Of a stretch of 64,000 bases of DNA, positions 1-10,778 are shown one piece after another. Made by a program: the position numbers and the translations under genes. Within the stretch, counting starts at the first letter, position 1, and each line of letters starts with the position of its first letter. The stretch is from the NCBI RefSeq assembly GCF_050320075.1, contig NZ_CP190018.1, one strand, 5' to 3'. The notes under the pieces were generated by a model. It worked only from the letters and a program-made list of their open reading frames with translations. It did no database searches and was not told the origin of the DNA. Source of the stretch: Escherichia coli. Its GTDB lineage: Bacteria > Pseudomonadota > Gammaproteobacteria > Enterobacterales > Enterobacteriaceae.

Positions 1-112
1 AAAGCGCATAAAAATAACAACATAAAACACTTTACCACCACCAAAAAATTCTCTATTGCATTGTTTTTTAATGAAAAAACATTATTCTCGTAATATTTCA
101 CGATAAATAACA

Positions 113-132
113 TTAGGATTTTGTTATTTAAA
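113..132 (+). promoter_or_regulatory. GAD box (GadE/RcsB-type site) upstream of gadB
   Basis: Sequence ttaggattttgttatttaaa matches the 20-bp GAD box consensus as I recall it, about 80 bp upstream of the gadB ATG. Confidence 0.7.
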
Positions 133-211
133 CCCGAGTCCTTTGCACTTGCTTACTTTATCGATAAATCCTACTTTTTTAATGCGATCCAATCATTTTA
201 AGGAGTTTAAA

Positions 212-1612
212 ATGGATAAGAAGCAAGTAACGGATTTAAGGTCGGAACTACTCGATTCACGTTTTGGTGCGAAGTCTATTTCCACTATCGCAGAATCAAA
301 ACGATTTCCGCTGCACGAAATGCGCGATGATGTCGCATTCCAGATTATCAATGACGAATTATATCTTGATGGCAACGCTCGTCAGAACCTGGCCACTTTC
401 TGCCAGACCTGGGACGACGAAAATGTCCATAAGTTGATGGATTTATCCATTAACAAAAACTGGATCGACAAAGAAGAATATCCGCAATCCGCTGCAATCG
501 ACCTGCGTTGCGTAAACATGGTTGCCGATCTGTGGCATGCGCCTGCGCCGAAAAATGGTCAGGCCGTTGGCACCAACACCATTGGTTCTTCCGAGGCCTG
601 TATGCTCGGCGGGATGGCGATGAAATGGCGTTGGCGCAAGCGTATGGAAGCTGCAGGCAAACCAACGGATAAACCAAACCTGGTGTGCGGTCCGGTGCAA
701 ATCTGCTGGCATAAATTCGCCCGCTACTGGGATGTGGAGCTGCGTGAGATCCCTATGCGCCCCGGTCAGTTGTTTATGGACCCGAAACGCATGATTGAAG
801 CCTGCGACGAAAACACCATCGGCGTGGTGCCGACTTTCGGCGTGACCTACACCGGTAACTATGAGTTCCCGCAGCCGCTGCACGATGCGCTGGATAAATT
901 CCAGGCCGACACCGGTATCGACATCGACATGCACATCGACGCCGCCAGCGGTGGCTTCCTGGCACCGTTCGTCGCCCCGGATATCGTCTGGGACTTCCGC
1001 CTGCCGCGTGTGAAATCGATCAGTGCTTCAGGCCATAAATTCGGTCTGGCTCCGCTGGGCTGCGGCTGGGTTATCTGGCGTGATGAAGAAGCGCTGCCGC
1101 AGGAACTGGTGTTCAACGTTGACTACCTCGGTGGTCAGATTGGGACTTTCGCCATCAACTTCTCCCGCCCGGCGGGTCAGGTAATTGCACAGTACTATGA
1201 ATTCCTGCGCCTCGGTCGTGAAGGCTATACCAAAGTACAGAACGCCTCTTACCAGGTTGCCGCTTATCTGGCGGATGAAATCGCCAAACTGGGGCCGTAT
1301 GAGTTCATCTGTACCGGTCGCCCGGACGAAGGCATCCCGGCGGTTTGCTTCAAACTGAAAGAGGGTGAAGATCCGGGATACACCCTCTACGACCTCTCTG
1401 AACGTCTGCGTCTGCGCGGCTGGCAGGTTCCGGCCTTCACTCTCGGCGGTGAAGCCACCGACATCGTGGTGATGCGCATTATGTGTCGTCGCGGCTTCGA
1501 AATGGACTTTGCTGAACTGTTGCTGGAAGACTACAAAGCCTCCCTGAAATATCTCAGCGACCACCCGAAACTGCAGGGTATTGCCCAGCAGAACAGCTTT
1601 AAACATACCTGA
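212..1612 (+). CDS. gadB: Glutamate decarboxylase beta (PLP-dependent)
   Basis: 466-aa product starting [21 protein letters not shown] and ending KHT; followed by gadC. The ORF-track start at 143 is an upstream extension. Confidence 0.95.
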
Positions 1613-1632
1613 TAACGTTTAACGGTAACGGT

Positions 1633-1658
1633 GTCCCGAAACACACCCGTTTCGGGAC
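1633..1658 (+). other. Perfect 10-bp stem-loop in the gadB-gadC intergenic region (possible intra-operon attenuator or processing site)
   Basis: gtcccgaaac / acaccc loop / gtttcgggac directly after the gadB stop; not followed by a clean U-tract. Confidence 0.35.
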
Positions 1659-1767
1659 AATTTCCAAAGTCTGTTCACTGGCATTAGCAACGGAAAATAT
1701 TGTTCTGAATACGTTTCAGAACAAAACAGGTGCGGTTCCGACAGGAATACCGTTTTAGGGGGATAAT

Positions 1768-3303
1768 ATGGCTACATCAGTACAGACAGGTAAAGCTAAG
1801 CAGCTCACATTACTCGGATTTTTTGCCATAACGGCATCGATGGTAATGGCTGTTTATGAATACCCTACCTTCGCAACATCGGGCTTTTCATTAGTCTTCT
1901 TCCTGCTATTAGGCGGGATTTTATGGTTTATTCCCGTGGGACTTTGTGCTGCGGAAATGGCTACCGTCGACGGCTGGGAAGAAGGTGGTGTCTTCGCCTG
2001 GGTATCAAATACTCTGGGGCCGAGATGGGGATTTGCAGCGATCTCATTTGGCTATCTGCAAATCGCCATTGGTTTTATTCCGATGCTCTATTTCGTGTTA
2101 GGGGCACTCTCCTACATCCTGAAATGGCCAGCGCTGAATGAAGACCCCATTACCAAAACTATTGCAGCACTCATCATTCTTTGGGCGCTGGCATTAACGC
2201 AGTTTGGTGGCACGAAATACACGGCGCGAATTGCTAAAGTTGGCTTCTTCGCCGGTATCCTGTTACCTGCATTTATTTTGATCGCATTAGCGGCTATTTA
2301 TCTGCACTCCGGTGCCCCCGTTGCTATCGAAATGGATTCGAAGACCTTCTTCCCTGACTTCTCTAAAGTGGGCACCCTGGTTGTATTTGTTGCCTTCATT
2401 TTGAGTTATATGGGGGTAGAAGCATCTGCAACCCACGTCAATGAAATGAGCAACCCAGGGCGCGACTATCCGTTGGCTATGTTATTGCTGATGGTGGCGG
2501 CAATCTGCTTAAGCTCTGTTGGCGGTTTGTCTATTGCGATGGTCATTCCGGGTAATGAAATCAACCTCTCCGCAGGGGTAATGCAAACCTTTACCGTTCT
2601 GATGTCCCATGTGGCACCGGAAATTGAGTGGACGGTTCGCGTGATCTCCGCACTGCTGTTGCTGGGTGTTCTGGCGGAAATCGCTTCCTGGATTGTTGGT
2701 CCTTCTCGCGGGATGTATGTCACAGCGCAGAAAAACCTGCTGCCAGCAGCATTCGCTAAAATGAACAAAAATGGCGTACCGGTAACGCTGGTCATTTCGC
2801 AGCTGGTGATTACTTCTATCGCGTTGATCATCCTCACCAATACCGGTGGCGGTAACAACATGTCCTTCCTGATCGCACTGGCGCTGACGGTGGTGATTTA
2901 TCTGTGTGCTTATTTCATGCTGTTTATTGGCTACATTGTGTTGGTTCTTAAACATCCTGACTTAAAACGCACATTTAATATCCCTGGTGGTAAAGGGGTG
3001 AAACTGGTCGTGGCTGTTGTCGGTCTGCTGACTTCAATTATGGCGTTTATTGTTTCCTTCCTGCCGCCGGATAACATCCAGGGTGACTCTACCGATATGT
3101 ATGTTGAATTACTGGTCGTGAGTTTCCTGGTGGTACTTGCCCTGCCCTTTATTCTCTATGCTGTTCATGATCGTAAAGGCAAAGGGAATACCGGCGTCAC
3201 TCTGGAGCCAATCAACAGTCAGAACGCACCAAAAGGTCACTTCTTCCTGCACCCGCGTGCACGTTCACCACACTATATTGTGATGAATGACAAGAAACAC
3301 TAA
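1768..3303 (+). CDS. gadC: Glutamate:GABA antiporter
   Basis: 511-aa polytopic membrane protein of the APC family, immediately downstream of gadB. Confidence 0.95.
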
Positions 3304-3328
3304 CCATGTCTGAATGGTTATAAGATAA

Positions 3329-3356
3329 GGGAGCGATAATTCATCGCTCCCTTTTT
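3329..3356 (+). terminator. Rho-independent terminator after gadC
   Basis: gggagcgat / aattc / atcgctccc followed by ttttt. Confidence 0.7.
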
Positions 3357-3433
3357 CGTGCTTGCTGTCGTATTGACTTAACCGGGATAAGTACGAGAAT
3401 GAGCGCACATCTGTTTACCGGAAACCAGCACAT

Positions 3434-4753
3434 ATGGATATCTGCTCCCGAAACGAGAAATTAGCGATTAGAAGACCAGCGATACTGGTTGCACTGGCAC
3501 TTTTACTGTGTAGTTGTAAAAGCACGCCTCCAGAGTCCATGGTGACACCACCAGCGGGTTCAAAGCCACCAGCCACGACGCAACAATCGTCACAACCGAT
3601 GCGTGGCATCTGGCTGGCTACGGTGTCTCGCCTCGACTGGCCACCGGTTTCCTCGGTTAACATTAGTAACCCCACCAGCCGGGCCCGTGTACAACAACAG
3701 GCGATGATCGACAAACTGGATCATCTGCAACGTCTCGGCATAAACACGGTCTTTTTCCAGGTCAAGCCGGACGGTACCGCCCTGTGGCCATCAAAAATTT
3801 TGCCGTGGTCCGATCTTATGACCGGAAAGATTGGTGAAAATCCAGGTTACGATCCGCTGCAATTTATGCTCGACGAAGCCCACAAGCGTGGGATGAAAGT
3901 ACACGCCTGGTTTAACCCCTATCGCGTATCGGTTAATACGAAGCCCGGTACTATCAGGGAACTGAATAGCACTCTGTCTCAACAACCAGCGAGCGTCTAT
4001 GTGCAACACCGCGACTGGATCAGAACGTCCGGCGATCGCTTTGTCCTCGACCCGGGCATCCCTGAAGTTCAGGACTGGATCACATCAATAGTCGCGGAAG
4101 TGGTTTCCCGCTATCCGGTAGATGGCGTGCAGTTTGACGACTATTTCTATACTGAGTCACCAGCTTCACGGCTAAATGATAACGAAACGTACCGCAAATA
4201 CGGAGGCGCATTTGCGTCAAAAGCAGACTGGCGGCGCAACAATACTCAGCAGTTAATTGCGAAGGTATCGCACACCATTAAAAGCATTAAGCCGGAAGTC
4301 GAATTTGGCGTTAGCCCGGCAGGCGTGTGGCGTAACCGATCACACGATCCGCTCGGTTCCGATACCCGAGGCGCGGCAGCCTATGACGAATCCTACGCTG
4401 ACACCCGTCGATGGGTGGAACAAGGATTGCTGGATTACATTGCTCCCCAAATTTACTGGCCGTTCTCACGGAGTGCCGCACGTTATGACGTTTTGGCAAA
4501 ATGGTGGGCAGATGTCGTTAAACCGACCAGGACCCGCCTGTATATCGGTATCGCCTTCTATAAAGTGGGTGAACCTTCAAAGATAGAGCCAGACTGGATG
4601 ATTAACGGCGGCGTACCGGAACTGAAAAAACAGCTCGATCTTAACGATGCCGTGCCAGAAATTAGCGGCACAATCTTGTTCCGTGAGGACTATCTGAATA
4701 AACCGCAGACTCAACAAGCGGTTAGCTATCTGCAAAGTCGTTGGGGCAGTTAA
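3434..4753 (+). CDS. yddW: Glycoside-hydrolase-like lipoprotein YddW
   Basis: 439-aa ORF with a lipoprotein-type N-terminus (LLLCSCK); position after gadC matches K-12 synteny. Confidence 0.85.
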   Translation: MDICSRNEKLAIRRPAILVALALLLCSCKSTPPESMVTPPAGSKPPATTQQSSQPMRGIWLATVSRLDWPPVSSVNISNPTSRARVQQQAMIDKLDHLQRLGINTVFFQVKPDGTALWPSKILPWSDLMTGKIGENPGYDPLQFMLDEAHKRGMKVHAWFNPYRVSVNTKPGTIRELNSTLSQQPASVYVQHRDWIRTSGDRFVLDPGIPEVQDWITSIVAEVVSRYPVDGVQFDDYFYTESPASRLNDNETYRKYGGAFASKADWRRNNTQQLIAKVSHTIKSIKPEVEFGVSPAGVWRNRSHDPLGSDTRGAAAYDESYADTRRWVEQGLLDYIAPQIYWPFSRSAARYDVLAKWWADVVKPTRTRLYIGIAFYKVGEPSKIEPDWMINGGVPELKKQLDLNDAVPEISGTILFREDYLNKPQTQQAVSYLQSRWGS

Positions 4754-5129
4754 ACTCCCATTCATACTTTGTGACAAGCCGGTGGTTTACCCACCGGCTT
4801 GCTACCCTCTTGAAATATCCCACTAGTAATCATGCTTACTTAAGTCAAATTAACTACGCAATTAACCACACTTAGTTAAACAGTCATAAATCCCCTAATA
4901 AAAATGTATGAACATGAAAAAACATACGATATTCGCTGTCACCGAAAAATAATTACGATGGGCTATACTCTTCTGAAGAACAGTAGCGTAGATTGAAACT
5001 GTCCTAAGTCGCTTATTTCTTTTCAGTATATCTTCATATTTCAGGAGAATATGGTGCAGTTAGTCGATCTCGCACGTTGCGTTTCGTTTTGATTCCGTCT
5101 GCTTTCCCAGCCTTATAAGGGTGTGAATT

Positions 5130-5467
5130 ATGGAGATGTATTTTAAAAGAATGAAAGATGAGTGGACCGGGCTTGTCGAACAAGCAGATCCGCTCATTCG
5201 TGCTAAAGCCGCGGAAATTGCCGTTGCGCATGCCCATTATCTGAGTATTGAGTTTTACCGAATTGTCCGTATCGACCCGCATGCCGAAGAATTCTTGAGT
5301 AATGAACAAGTTGAGCGGCAGTTGAAAAGTGCGATGGAACGCTGGATTATTAACGTGCTTTCTGCCCAGGTGGACGATGTCGAAAGGCTAATACAAATCC
5401 AGCATACCGTTGCGGAAGTGCATGCCCGCATAGGAATTCCGGTAGAAATTGTCGAGATGGGGTTTCG
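5130..5467 (+). pseudogene. dosC: dosC 5' fragment (globin-sensor domain only), truncated by IS1
   Basis: Product starts MEMYFKRMKDEWTGLVEQADPLIRAKAAEIA (DosC globin domain) and runs into the IS1 left end at 5468; the GGDEF domain is absent. Confidence 0.8.
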
Positions 5468-5522
5468 GGTGATGCTGCCAACTTACTGATTTAGTGTATG
5501 ATGGTGTTTTTGAGGTGCTCCA

Positions 5523-5798
5523 GTGGCTTCTGTTTCTATCAGCTGTCCCTCCTGTTCAGCTACTGACGGGGTGGTGCGTAACGGCAAAAGCACCGCCGGA
5601 CATCAGCGCTATCTCTGCTCTCACTGCCGTAAAACATGGCAACTGCAGTTCACTTACACCGCTTCTCAACCCGGTACGCACCAGAAAATCATTGATATGG
5701 CCATGAATGGCGTTGGATGCCGGGCAACCGCCCGCATTATGGGCGTTGGCCTCAACACGATTTTCCGCCATTTAAAAAACTCAGGCCGCAGTCGGTAA
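5523..5798 (+). CDS. insA: IS1 InsA
   Basis: 91-aa product [43 protein letters not shown]. Confidence 0.95.
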
Positions 5799-6220
5799 CC
5801 TCGCGCATACAGCCGGGCAGTGACGTCATCGTCTGCGCGGAAATGGACGAACAGTGGGGATACGTCGGGGCTAAATCGCGCCAGCGCTGGCTGTTTTACG
5901 CGTATGACAGGCTCCGGAAGACGGTTGTTGCGCACGTATTCGGTGAACGCACTCTGGCCACACTGGAGCGTCTTCTAAGCCTGCTGTCGGCCTTTGAGGT
6001 CGTGGTATGGATGACGGATGGCTGGCCGCTGTATGAATCCCGCCTGAAGGGAAAGCTGCACGTAATCAGCAAGCGTTACACTCAGCGAATTGAGCGGCAT
6101 AACCTGAATCTGAGACAACATCTGGCAAGGCTGGGACGGAAGTCACTGTCGTTCTCAAAATCGGTGGAGCTGCATGACAAGGTCATCGGGCATTATCTGA
6201 ACATAAAACACTATCAGTAA
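5717..6220 (+). CDS. insB: IS1 InsB (transposase made as InsAB' by -1 frameshift)
   Basis: 167-aa ORF overlapping insA in the -1 frame; typical IS1 organisation. Confidence 0.9.
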
Positions 6221-6235
6221 GTTGGAGTCATTACC

Positions 6236-6430
6236 GAAAATTCAACAGCAGAACCCGCTCTGGTTAATGCCATTGAGCAAGGCCTTCGGGCAGAGCACGG
6301 TGTTGTCACTGAAGATGACATTCTCATGGAGCTGACCAAATGGGTGGAAGCTTCTGATAACGACATCCTCAGTGATATCTACCAGCAAACGATCAATTAT
6401 GTGGTCAGTGGCCAGCACCCTACGCTTTAA
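6236..6430 (+). pseudogene. bdm: bdm (biofilm-dependent modulation protein), 5'-truncated by IS1
   Basis: Reading frame ENSTAEPALVNAIEQGLRAEHGVVTEDDILMELTKWVEASDNDILSDIYQQTINYVVSGQHPTL begins exactly at the IS1 right end; the first ~7 codons and the promoter are missing. Confidence 0.8.
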
Positions 6431-6531
6431 GGTGCTATGCTTGATCGGCAACCTAATTTAGGGGTTTAGCACGTGTTTCTTCGCTACGGCGATGTTGTCC
6501 TTAAAACTAGCAACAGGATTGAGGAGTTAAA

Positions 6532-6669
6532 ATGAAATCGAACCGTCAGGCACGTCATATTCTTGGACTGGACCATAAAATTTCTAACCAGCGCAAAATA
6601 GTTACCGAAGGTGACAAATCCAGCGTGGTAAATAACCCAACCGGCAGAAAACGCCCCGCTGAAAAGTAA
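6532..6669 (+). CDS. sra: Stationary-phase ribosome-associated protein Sra (30S subunit protein S22)
   Basis: 45-aa [48 protein letters not shown]; missed by the ORF track because it is short. Confidence 0.9.
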
Positions 6670-6700
6670 TTCATAACCATCAGTCCTCAATGACGATTAA

Positions 6701-6734
6701 ACACCATTGCCTGCGCAATGGTGTTTTTGTTTTT
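6701..6734 (+). terminator. Rho-independent terminator after sra
   Basis: acaccattgc / ctgc / gcaatggtgt followed by tttttgttttt. Confidence 0.75.
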
Positions 6735-6825
6735 ATCTGCTTTATACTTGGGGCCGACGCCCTGGCGGTAAAGCAAAGACGATAAAAGCGTGCCAGGGTT
6801 GGATATTCAAAAAAGAGTGAGTGAC

Positions 6826-8523
6826 ATGGAACCAAAAACAAAAAAACAGCGTTCGCTTTATATTCCTTACGCTGGCCCTGTACTGCTGGAATTTCCGTTG
6901 TTGAATAAAGGCAGTGCCTTCAGCATGGAAGAACGCCGTAACTTCAACCTGCTGGGGTTACTGCCGGAAGTGGTCGAAACCATCGAAGAGCAAGCGGAAC
7001 GAGCATGGATCCAGTATCAGGGATTCAAAACCGAAATCGACAAACACATCTACCTGCGTAACATCCAGGACACTAACGAAACCCTCTTCTACCGTCTGGT
7101 AAACAATCATCTTGATGAGATGATGCCTGTTATTTATACCCCAACCGTTGGCGCAGCCTGTGAGCGTTTTTCTGAGATCTACCGCCGTTCACGCGGCGTG
7201 TTTATCTCTTACCAGAACCGCCACAATATGGACGATATTCTGCAAAACGTGCCGAACCATAATATTAAAGTGATTGTGGTGACTGACGGCGAACGTATTC
7301 TGGGGCTTGGTGACCAGGGCATCGGCGGGATGGGCATTCCGATCGGTAAACTGTCGCTCTATACCGCTTGTGGCGGCATCAGCCCAGCGTATACCCTTCC
7401 GGTGGTGCTGGATGTCGGGACGAATAACCAACAGCTGCTTAACGATCCGCTGTATATGGGCTGGCGTAATCCGCGTATCACTGACGACGAATACTATGAA
7501 TTCGTTGATGAATTTATCCAGGCTGTGAAACAACGCTGGCCGGACGTACTGTTGCAGTTTGAAGACTTCGCACAAAAAAATGCGATGCCGTTACTTAACC
7601 GCTATCGCAATGAAATTTGTTCTTTTAACGATGACATTCAGGGCACCGCGGCGGTAACGGTCGGCACACTGATCGCAGCCAGCCGCGCGGCAGGTGGTCA
7701 GTTAAGCGAGAAAAAAATCGTCTTCCTTGGCGCAGGTTCAGCGGGATGCGGCATTGCCGAAATGATCATTGCCCAGACTCAGCGCGAAGGATTAAGCGAG
7801 GAAACGGCGCGGCAGAAAGTCTTTATGGTCGATCGCTTTGGCCTGCTGACCGACAAGATGCCGAACCTGCTGCCTTTCCAGACCAAACTGGTGCAGAAAC
7901 GCGAAAACCTCAGTGACTGGGATACCGACAGCGATGTGCTGTCACTGCTGGATGTGGTGCGTAATGTAAAACCAGATATTCTGATTGGCGTCTCAGGACA
8001 GACCGGGCTGTTTACGGAAGAGATCATCCGTGAGATGCATAAACACTGTCCGCGTCCGATCGTGATGCCGTTGTCTAACCCGACTTCACGCGTGGAAGCC
8101 ACACCGCAGGACATTATCGCCTGGACTGAAGGTAACGCGCTGGTCGCCACTGGCAGTCCGTTTAACCCAGTGGTATGGAAAGATAAAATCTACCCTATCG
8201 CCCAGTGTAACAACGCCTTTATTTTCCCGGGCATCGGGCTGGGCGTTATTGCTTCCGGCGCGTCACGTATCACCGATGAGATGCTGATGTCGGCAAGTGA
8301 AACGCTTGCTCAGTATTCGCCACTGGTGCTGAACGGCGAAGGTCTGGTACTGCCGGAACTGAAAGATATTCAGAAAGTCTCCCGCGCAATTGCCTTTGCG
8401 GTTGGCAAAATGGCGCAGCAGCAAGGCGTGGCGGTGAAAACCTCCGCCGAAGCTCTGCAACAGGCCATTGATGATAATTTCTGGCAAGCCGAATACCGCG
8501 ACTACCGCCGTACCTCCATCTAA
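6826..8523 (+). CDS. maeA: NAD-dependent malic enzyme
   Basis: 565-aa product from [22 protein letters not shown]; malic enzyme family; the ORF-track start at 6790 is a GTG extension. Confidence 0.95.
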
Positions 8524-8656
8524 GCCTGCGCCCGGTAGTCAAGGCTACCGGGCAATTTCCCTCTCCCTTTTTCAGATCTCATCCATACTGGGTAGTGGCG
8601 AATAAATCTCATTTGCCTCACCTGCTATGCAGAACATCATCCGAAAAGGAGGAACT

Positions 8657-9667
8657 ATGAAGGCTGCAGTTGTTACGAAGGATCATCATGTTGACGTTAC
8701 GGATAAAACACTGCGCTCACTGAAACATGGCGAAGCCCTGCTGAAAATGGAGTGTTGTGGTGTATGTCATACCGATCTTCATGTGAAGAATGGCGATTTT
8801 GGTGACAAAACCGGCGTAATTCTGGGCCATGAAGGCATCGGTGTGGTGGCAGAAGTTGGCCCAGGTGTCACCTCATTAAAACCAGGCGATCGTGCCAGCG
8901 TGGCGTGGTTTTACGAAGGATGCGGTCATTGCGAATACTGTAACAGTGGTAACGAAACGCTCTGCCGTTCAGTTAAAAATGCCGGATACAGCGTTGATGG
9001 AGGGATGGCGGAAGAGTGCATCGTGGTCGCCGATTACGCGGTAAAAGTGCCAGATGGTCTGGACTCGGCGGCGGCCAGCAGCATTACCTGTGCGGGGGTC
9101 ACCACCTACAAAGCCGTTAAGCTGTCAAAAATTCGTCCAGGGCAGTGGATTGCTATCTACGGTCTTGGCGGTCTGGGTAACCTCGCCCTGCAATACGCGA
9201 AGAATGTCTTTAACGCCAAAGTGATCGCCATTGATGTCAATGATGAGCAGTTAAAACTGGCAACCGAAATGGGCGCAGATTTAGCGATTAACTCACGCAG
9301 CGAAGACGCCGCCAAAATTGTGCAGGAGAAAACTAGTGGCGCTCACGCTGCGGTGGTAACAGCGGTAGCTAAAGCTGCGTTTAACTCGGCAGTTGATGCT
9401 GTCCGTGCAGGTGGGCGTGTTGTGGCAGTCGGTCTGCCGCCGGAGTCTATGAGCCTGGATATCCCACGCCTTGTGCTGGATGGCATTGAAGTGGTCGGTT
9501 CTCTGGTCGGCACGCGCCAGGATCTAACCGAAGCCTTCCAGTTTGCCGCCGAAGGCAAAGTGGTGCCGAAAGTCGCCCTGCGTCCGTTAGCGGACATCAA
9601 CACCATCTTTACCGAGATGGAAGAAGGCAAAATCCGTGGCCGTATGGTGATTGATTTCCGCCGCTAA
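8657..9667 (+). CDS. adhP: Zn-dependent alcohol dehydrogenase, propanol-preferring
   Basis: 336-aa product from [11 protein letters not shown] with the GHEGIG and CGHCEYC zinc-ADH motifs. Confidence 0.95.
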
Positions 9668-9783
9668 GAGGCCTTTGCTGCGACTGCCATGTTCGGGTCG
9701 CAGCATCGCACACTCTCCAACATGAAATGGCTAAATGGATTATTGTTGCGTAGGAAGGAACGCTACTGAGAGTAAAGACACTA

Positions 9784-10068
9784 ATGAAAATGGCCAATCA
9801 TCCCCGCCCGGGGGACATTATTCAGGAATCACTGGACGAACTTAATGTCAGCCTGCGCGAGTTTGCCAGAGCAATGGAAATTGCGCCCTCAACGGCAAGC
9901 CGATTGCTGACCGGAAAAGCAGCTTTGACACCAGAAATGGCGATTAAACTTTCCGTGGTGATCGGCAGTTCGCCGCAAATGTGGCTGAATCTGCAAAACG
10001 CCTGGAGTCTGGCAGAGGCAGAAAAAACGGTGGATGTGTCGCGATTACGCCGTCTGGTTACGCAATAA
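9784..10068 (+). CDS. yddM: HTH-XRE antitoxin-like DNA-binding protein (HigA family)
   Basis: 94-aa ORF with a helix-turn-helix ([23 protein letters not shown]); position after adhP matches K-12 yddM. Confidence 0.8.
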
Positions 10069-10778
10069 TAAATATCCTCCGGCATAGCCGGAGGTTTTTC
10101 AAATGCGCCTGTAAGGCTCTGTTACCAGCCGCGCCCTAACAGGCGCATACGATCTGACATTTGCATTCAACTTCGTTACTTACGGCCCGTAAACGGGCTG
10201 CCCGGATATGGAATCGATAACTGCTCCCCCATTTTATCCTCTTCAAGCTGGTGCTTTATGTAGTCCTGTATCTTCGCCGTGTTCTTACCCACCGTATCGA
10301 CATAGTACCCTCGGCACCAGAACTCCCTGTTTCTGTATTTGAATTTCAAATCCCCAAACTGCTCGTAAAGCATCAGACTGCTTTTCCCTTTCAGATATCC
10401 CATAAAGCCGGATACGCTCATTTTGGGTGGGATTTCCACAAGCATATGGATATGATCTGCGCAGCACTCTGCTTCCAGAATCCGTACGCTTTTCCACTCA
10501 CACAGCTTTCTCAAAATACTGCCTATCGCCCTACGCTTCTCTCCGTAAAACGCCAGTCTTCGGTATTTCGGCGCAAAAACTATGTGATATTTACAGTTCC
10601 AGCGGGTGTGCGCTAAGCTCTTTTCGTCCCCCATTGGGACCCCCTTTTGATTTCTTGTTTGACACTTGCAGTTGCCAGACCGCAAGGTGTTTTAACAAAT
10701 CAAAAGGGGTTTTAATAACTGGCTCAAAGCTGAAAGCTTTCCGGAACCCCCAGCCTAGCTGGGGGTTTTCTGTGCACA
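10067..10778 (-). mobile_element. IS200-like element (IS200/IS605 family), copy 1, about 712 bp
   Basis: Shares about 712 bp including terminal hairpins (cctccggcatagccggagg; ccccagctaggctggggg) with an inverted copy at 49967..50678; boundaries inferred from where the two copies diverge from their flanks. Confidence 0.7.
10176..10634 (-). CDS. tnpA: IS200-type Y1 (HUH) transposase TnpA
   Basis: 152-aa product MGDEKSLAHTRWNCKYHIVFAPKYRR with a HIHML HUH motif; the ORF-track start at 10685 is an extension. Confidence 0.9.
   Translation of the reverse strand: MGDEKSLAHTRWNCKYHIVFAPKYRRLAFYGEKRRAIGSILRKLCEWKSVRILEAECCADHIHMLVEIPPKMSVSGFMGYLKGKSSLMLYEQFGDLKFKYRNREFWCRGYYVDTVGKNTAKIQDYIKHQLEEDKMGEQLSIPYPGSPFTGRK

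Follow-up and report, generated by a model that had tools for sequence, protein, structure and literature searches.

Evidence for a very recent IS1-anchored deletion of dosP, ddpXABCDF, osmC and most of dosC next to bdm in Escherichia coli

The classic example of an IS-mediated adjacent deletion is provided by IS1 in the gal region. Adjacent deletions have also been analysed for IS150 in the Lenski long-term lines, and for such evolved E. coli lines the absence of a target duplication, combined with an IS previously present at that site, is read as an adjacent deletion (PMC11708052). The dosC-bdm locus described here lies in a 64-kb window, the whole stretch of E. coli DNA that was analysed. 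It resembles the IS150 adjacent deletions in that the IS is kept, one junction is unchanged, the deletion runs from an IS end, there is no duplication, and the IS site is documented in an earlier state. It differs from the Lenski IS150 cases in that it comes from a pair of natural isolates and not from a laboratory time series, and in that the element is IS1 and not IS150. That an IS1-anchored deletion took place at this locus is almost certain. The event is a strain-specific, very recent case of a well-known textbook process, and it poses no new mechanistic question.

The nearest relative of the strain is E. coli YZLc1-3 (NZ_CP123240.1; chicken faeces, Yangzhou), in its assembly GCF_025583585.2, a second version; a literature search on strain YZLc1-3 found nothing. 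The features of the window that are needed for the comparison are the following.

3434..4753, plus strand: digH (yddW), the intact upstream neighbour (ORF; window 1-5471 is 100% identical to YZLc1-3)
5130..5467, plus strand: 5' remnant of dosC (dgcO), with ATG at 5130 and codons 1-112 plus 2 nt
5468-6235, plus strand: intact IS1 of 768 bp (both ends read directly; terminal repeats, ORFs and motif)
5468-5490, plus strand: left inverted repeat of this IS1 (end sequence); the deletion adjoins this left end
5523-5798, plus strand: insA (ORF listing)
5774-5780, plus strand: A6C frameshift motif (TTAAAAAACTC at 5772)
ending at 6220, plus strand: insB frame (ORF listing)
6213-6235, plus strand: right inverted repeat of this IS1 (end sequence)
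6236..6430, plus strand: bdm remnant, codons 8-71 plus stop (translation; codon 8 is GAA at 6236, stop at 6428-6430)
6236..6243, plus strand: surviving right-hand copy of the 8-bp duplication GAAAATTC, which flanks the same IS1 on both sides in YZLc1-3
6532..6669, plus strand: sra, the intact downstream neighbour (ORF; right flank matches YZLc1-3)
16157-16924, minus strand: second IS1 in the window, splitting yddG, with the 8-bp duplication CGTTTATC; also present in YZLc1-3

The element at 5468-6235 has the imperfect terminal inverted repeats of IS1, about 23 bp in length (GGTGATGCTGCCAACTTACTGAT and GGTAATGACTCCAACTTACTGAT), and its insA and insB frames are linked by a -1 frameshift at the A6C motif. 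For the identical copy in YZLc1-3, the annotation gives an IS1 family transposase with programmed frameshifting. No 8-9-bp target duplication surrounds the element, the 9-bp flanks GGGGTTTCG and GAAAATTCA being unrelated, and this agrees with the initial annotation, which had reported no 8/9-bp direct repeat at the flanks and had argued that this is not a simple insertion. The missing duplication is attributed to a later rearrangement, and the identity of the element as IS1 is not in doubt. The IS1 in yddG, which differs from the dosC-bdm copy at 36 of 768 positions, serves as an internal control, since its CGTTTATC duplication indicates that simple IS1 insertions in this background do duplicate their target. 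A promoter and terminator scan of 4740-6800 gave nothing beyond shuffled expectation except the sra terminator.

The dosC remnant is 100% identical to the corresponding part of YZLc1-3 dosC, and the wider left flank is 97.6% identical to K-12. The digH gene is intact, and the left flank is therefore unchanged. The bases GGTG (5468-5471) are common to dosC and the IS1 end, which makes the breakpoint ambiguous by 4 bp, and because of this overlap 114 native DosC residues are kept. The ORF at 5130-5489 encodes DosC residues 1-114 followed by MLPTY, with a stop at 5487-5489 and a predicted product of 119 aa. In the full-length protein the globin domain extends over residues of about 1-156 or 8-170, the middle domain over 173-298 and the GGDEF domain over 297-460 (PDB 4ZVB, 4ZVA), and the Pfam Protoglobin domain spans 26-155. 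In place of complete globin, middle and GGDEF domains, residues 1-114 alone remain in this strain. The stub is thus about 70% of the globin domain, with the final part of the fold gone. It had been described at first as a globin-only stub with an IS1-encoded tail; the tail, MLPTY, is indeed there, but the globin is not whole. Tyr43 and His98, the distal and proximal haem residues, respectively, still lie within the stub sequence. The stub is best regarded as a pseudogene.

The bdm remnant begins at 6236, where the alignment to K-12 resumes (NC_000913.3 1,556,259), and it is without the native start codon, ribosome-binding site and promoter. Beyond it sra is intact, and the right flank is therefore also unchanged. 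The damage to bdm arose with the IS1 insertion and is older than the deletion, which means that bdm was already disrupted; the left-hand GAAAATTC copy was removed along with the deleted DNA. The remnant lies in the insB reading frame, with the insB TAA and five codons between them (window 6218-6250). In YZLc1-3, PGAP rescues the bdm remnant as a Bdm of 66 aa by taking an ATT within the right end of IS1 as the start. An exact look-up of the 34-aa bdm remnant protein returned only unrelated frameshifted loci.

Alignment to K-12 MG1655, which had been proposed with the initial annotation as a check on the deleted interval, places window 1-5471 at NC_000913.3 1,572,256-1,566,799 and window 6236-10072 at 1,556,259-1,552,394. 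The missing interval is accordingly 10,543 bp in K-12 coordinates (NC_000913.3 1,556,260-1,566,802), and it is 10,551 bp relative to YZLc1-3 (record 2,644,518-2,655,068), the left duplication copy included. An earlier estimate of 13-14 kb was too large. The two junctions, with the IS1 left end after about dosC codon 113 and the right end at bdm codon 8, are where they had been placed, and the K-12 gene order given in the initial annotation matches the K-12 annotation. In K-12 the interval contains dosC from codons 113/115 to 460, dosP, ddpX, ddpA, ddpB, ddpC, ddpD, ddpF and osmC, and it also takes in bdm codons 1-7 and the 344 bp between osmC and bdm. The genes originally named as missing (the rest of dosC, dosP, ddpXABCDF and osmC) are the same ones that are obtained by comparison with both K-12 and YZLc1-3. 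The strain has thus lost the 3' three-quarters of dosC, dosP, ddpXABCDF, osmC, the promoter regions of osmC and bdm, and bdm codons 1-7.

YZLc1-3 preserves the locus as it was before this loss. Window 1-5471 has no differences from YZLc1-3, window 6236-31000 matches it at 100% in one piece with the yddG IS1 included, and YZLc1-3 carries, at this very position in bdm, an IS1 identical to that of the window over 768/768 positions. The right flank has 2 substitutions in 49,931 bp, at window 39474 and 52785. This near-identity points to a very recent divergence. One of the two substitutions is in an RHS core protein gene and the other in mnaT, and they are the only two in the roughly 55 kb compared. 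The bdm IS1 of YZLc1-3 is a simple insertion with the 8-bp duplication GAAAATTC on both sides, and an intact dosC-dosP-ddpXABCDF-osmC segment, single-copy in that genome, lies between the dosC breakpoint and IS1. In a genome with an identical left flank the segment thus lies complete between these end points, which upholds the reading of the junction as a deletion. The state of YZLc1-3 also gives the order of events, with IS1 entering bdm first and the leftward deletion following later and very recently. On these comparisons the window carries a very recent deletion leftward from the left end of a pre-existing IS1.

Other arrangements of the same segments fit less well. Ancestral adjacency of dosC and bdm is ruled out, as K-12 and YZLc1-3 both carry the full segment between them. 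Inversion is ruled out as well: a single IS1 joins dosC 5' to bdm 3', whereas an inversion would be expected to give two inverted IS1 copies, with dosC 5' joined to the 5' side of bdm. It is very unlikely that the segment has moved elsewhere in the genome, for example by re-integration of an IS1-bearing circle, or that the junction comes from only a subpopulation of a YZLc1-3-like culture or from a choice made in assembling it. The view is of 64 kb of the genome, and with such near-identity to YZLc1-3 (itself in a second assembly version) an alternative assembly or a subclone could explain the window. However, an assembler could not have created the dosC-IS1 junction, since the dosC breakpoint of YZLc1-3 is free of repeats, and nothing of the segment was found in the rest of the window. 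A search for a displaced copy of the missing DNA within the 64 kb found none, the only related sequences being distant paralogues that encode a GGDEF protein (at about 35.7 kb) and an ABC ATPase (at about 58 kb).

The deletion has the features of an adjacent deletion. The states before and after it, its exact end points and the retention of an identical IS1 are all observed. The IS was earlier present at the same site with its duplication, as seen in YZLc1-3, the right junction is unchanged, and the deletion starts from the left terminus of IS1 to within 4 bp. An adjacent deletion is recognised by this combination, in which the IS stays, one of its junctions is untouched, the deletion starts from its terminus and the duplication is lost. 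Intramolecular action of the IS1 transposase probably made the left junction, as far as the sequence allows this to be read. IS1 would first have inserted at bdm codon 8 and generated the 8-bp duplication GAAAATTC, the state that survives in YZLc1-3. In a very close descendant, the transposase would then have joined the left end of this same IS1 to a dosC target on the same chromosome, after ...GGGGTTTCG at codon 113. Intramolecular replicative transposition of this kind would free the 10,551 bp as a non-replicating circle, which would then be lost, and the chromosome would be left with one IS1, whose right junction is intact and whose left junction is new and lacks a duplication.

The same dosC-IS1 junction is also present outside this strain. 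An exact look-up of the 119-aa stub, which retrieves only identical stubs, found it in 14 public contigs, all of them short, among which are ERZ918621 (run ERR525781), ERR525782 and JGI 3300039313. These contigs carry the same dosC-IS1 left-end junction (locus position ~3338) in the same orientation, and they end inside IS1. Over about 3,400 positions of flank they show 72-74 differences from the window (97.9% identity), and these come as close as 57 bp to the junction. The flanks match another group of complete genomes at 99.9% identity, UK_Dog_Liverpool and WCHEC020031 among them, in which dosC is intact. An independent lineage has thus taken an IS1 left end at the same nucleotide, a hint of a preferred target that is only suggestive, since the look-up retrieves identical stubs alone. 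Codon 113 of dosC could be such a target, with the GGTGCTG that follows the breakpoint perhaps imitating the IS1 terminus GGTGATGCTG, but this is doubtful. If true, unrelated E. coli lineages would repeatedly gain the same dosC-IS1 junction, and IS1 would be a recurrent, site-directed route to the loss of the DosC/DosP module in gut populations.

These contigs bear on two other ways in which the left junction could have formed. One is an illegitimate join made without the transposase, by microhomology-mediated recombination or by replication slippage, between the GGTG of the IS1 end and that of dosC. The join does show a 4-bp GGTG identity, within a dosC GGTGCTG that resembles the IS1 end, but 4 bp is a short match, with a chance expectation of about 1 in 256, and the end point is exactly at the IS1 terminus, as transposase action predicts. 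A second lineage with the same junction is also a better fit to targeted transposition than to random slippage, and a transposase-free origin is very unlikely.

The other takes two steps, in which a second IS1 would have inserted at dosC codon 113 in the same orientation and then undergone RecA-dependent recombination with the bdm copy, so that one IS1 was left. The product would be identical, and it would have no duplication, each flank coming from a different insertion, so the sequence cannot separate this route from transposase action on a single IS1. That the unrelated lineage has an IS1 left end at the exact dosC nucleotide indicates that the site can receive IS1; the genome is IS1-rich, with 22-35 IS1-containing matches seen in YZLc1-3, and five complete genomes carry IS1 at other positions in dosC. 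Two events would, however, have to fall within 2 SNPs per 55 kb, and in a set of 5,426 complete E. coli genomes none has an IS1 at this dosC site or shows the double-IS1 intermediate. A further but weak argument against this route is that the IS1 is identical to the bdm copy, while the yddG IS1, the sole other copy compared, differs from it at 36 positions. The two-step route is the main rival but is unlikely, and a single intramolecular event remains the preferred reading.

A simple insertion at the dosC site would also have a reciprocal junction, with the partner ...CATTACC-GGGGTTTCGGGTGCTG. Scans of JGI metagenomes gave neither this reciprocal junction nor the dosC-IS1 junction (0 for each); they also missed the JGI contig known to carry the latter, whose sample is outside the collection. 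An exact look-up of the junction-specific 355-aa 3' DosC product returned nothing, and the matches to a 347-aa 3' DosC form were all at loci lacking an IS. In several public E. coli assemblies the gene call for dosC is this 347-aa product, starting from Val114, with no IS nearby and with the globin-coding part split off or uncalled. These calls may reflect point disruptions in the globin region or differences in gene calling.

CUWW10 (NZ_CP182145.1) carries bdm::IS1A. Like the window, it has the identical IS1-bdm codon-8 junction and a leftward deletion from the IS1 left end. Its element is as follows.

2293-3060 of the extracted NZ_CP182145.1 locus: CUWW10 IS1A, an independent use of the same bdm target

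Unlike the window, CUWW10 has an IS1 variant that is 96.7% identical, in a K-12-like background, and it keeps osmC, ddp and dosCP. Its deletion is just 301 bp and extends from the 5' end of bdm into the osmC-bdm spacer; as a smaller instance of the same process, it supports the adjacent-deletion reading.

GD33 (NZ_CP076646.1) is like the window in having an IS1-bounded deletion that removes dosC, dosP, ddp and osmC and ends beside bdm. It differs in that an IS1B (~6290-7060 of the extracted locus) lies ~290 bp upstream of an intact bdm, and in that the deletion is much larger. The IS1B joins directly to a truncated fimbrial gene adjoining ydeR, and gadBC, digH, pqqL and other genes are also taken. 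About ten other complete genomes have the same match pattern as GD33, on the basis of matches only; for YY76-1, T16R, 19-5, DY612 and ET915, which show this pattern, membership of the group is assumed. STEC1587 (NZ_CP129259.1) has likewise lost dosC, dosP and ddp, and its osmC is truncated. In contrast to the window, there is no IS at its join (~5000-5270 of the extracted locus) and bdm is intact, and the end points are different, reaching from the digH-dosC intergenic region to inside osmC.

A literature search on IS1 deletion of dosC/dosP found only a paper on Shigella, in which the dgcO (dosC) of Shigella flexneri 2457T is listed as a pseudogene with a 'truncating deletion, no GGDEF' (PMC11327459). 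Unlike in the window, dosP (pdeO) is still listed as present in that strain (PMC11327459).

In none of the 5,426 complete genomes are a dosC stub and bdm separated by only about 1 kb or less, and none contains the dosC-IS1 junction as an uninterrupted match. YZLc1-3 is the only one with the exact IS1-bdm junction at 100% identity, and NCTC9967 has a simple IS1 insertion 14 bp deeper into bdm. Of the 5,426, 4,209 have 80% or more of the 10.5-kb segment. A large class of genomes covers just 34% of it, and in these the ddp genes and a portion of dosC go unmatched. In about 1,150 of the 5,426 genomes there are no ddp matches, and dosC, annotated as 'diguanylate cyclase domain-containing protein', is shortened. 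The locus is therefore commonly eroded in part, though complete loss of dosP is rare, the dosC-3'/dosP DNA being wholly absent from 20/5,426. The dosC-bdm region is a repeated site of IS1 activity and loss.

The strain would be without DosC/DosP oxygen-controlled c-di-GMP signalling, the Ddp D-Ala-D-Ala dipeptidase and transporter, the OsmC peroxiredoxin and a functional Bdm. Together with YZLc1-3 it provides a clean natural before-and-after pair for a single IS1 insertion that seeded a larger loss. Since complete loss of the dosC 3' part and dosP is so rare, the strain could serve as a natural knockout beside its near-isogenic, intact relative. The chief value of the two lies in their being a near-isogenic natural pair that differ by the loss of dosCP, ddp and osmC.
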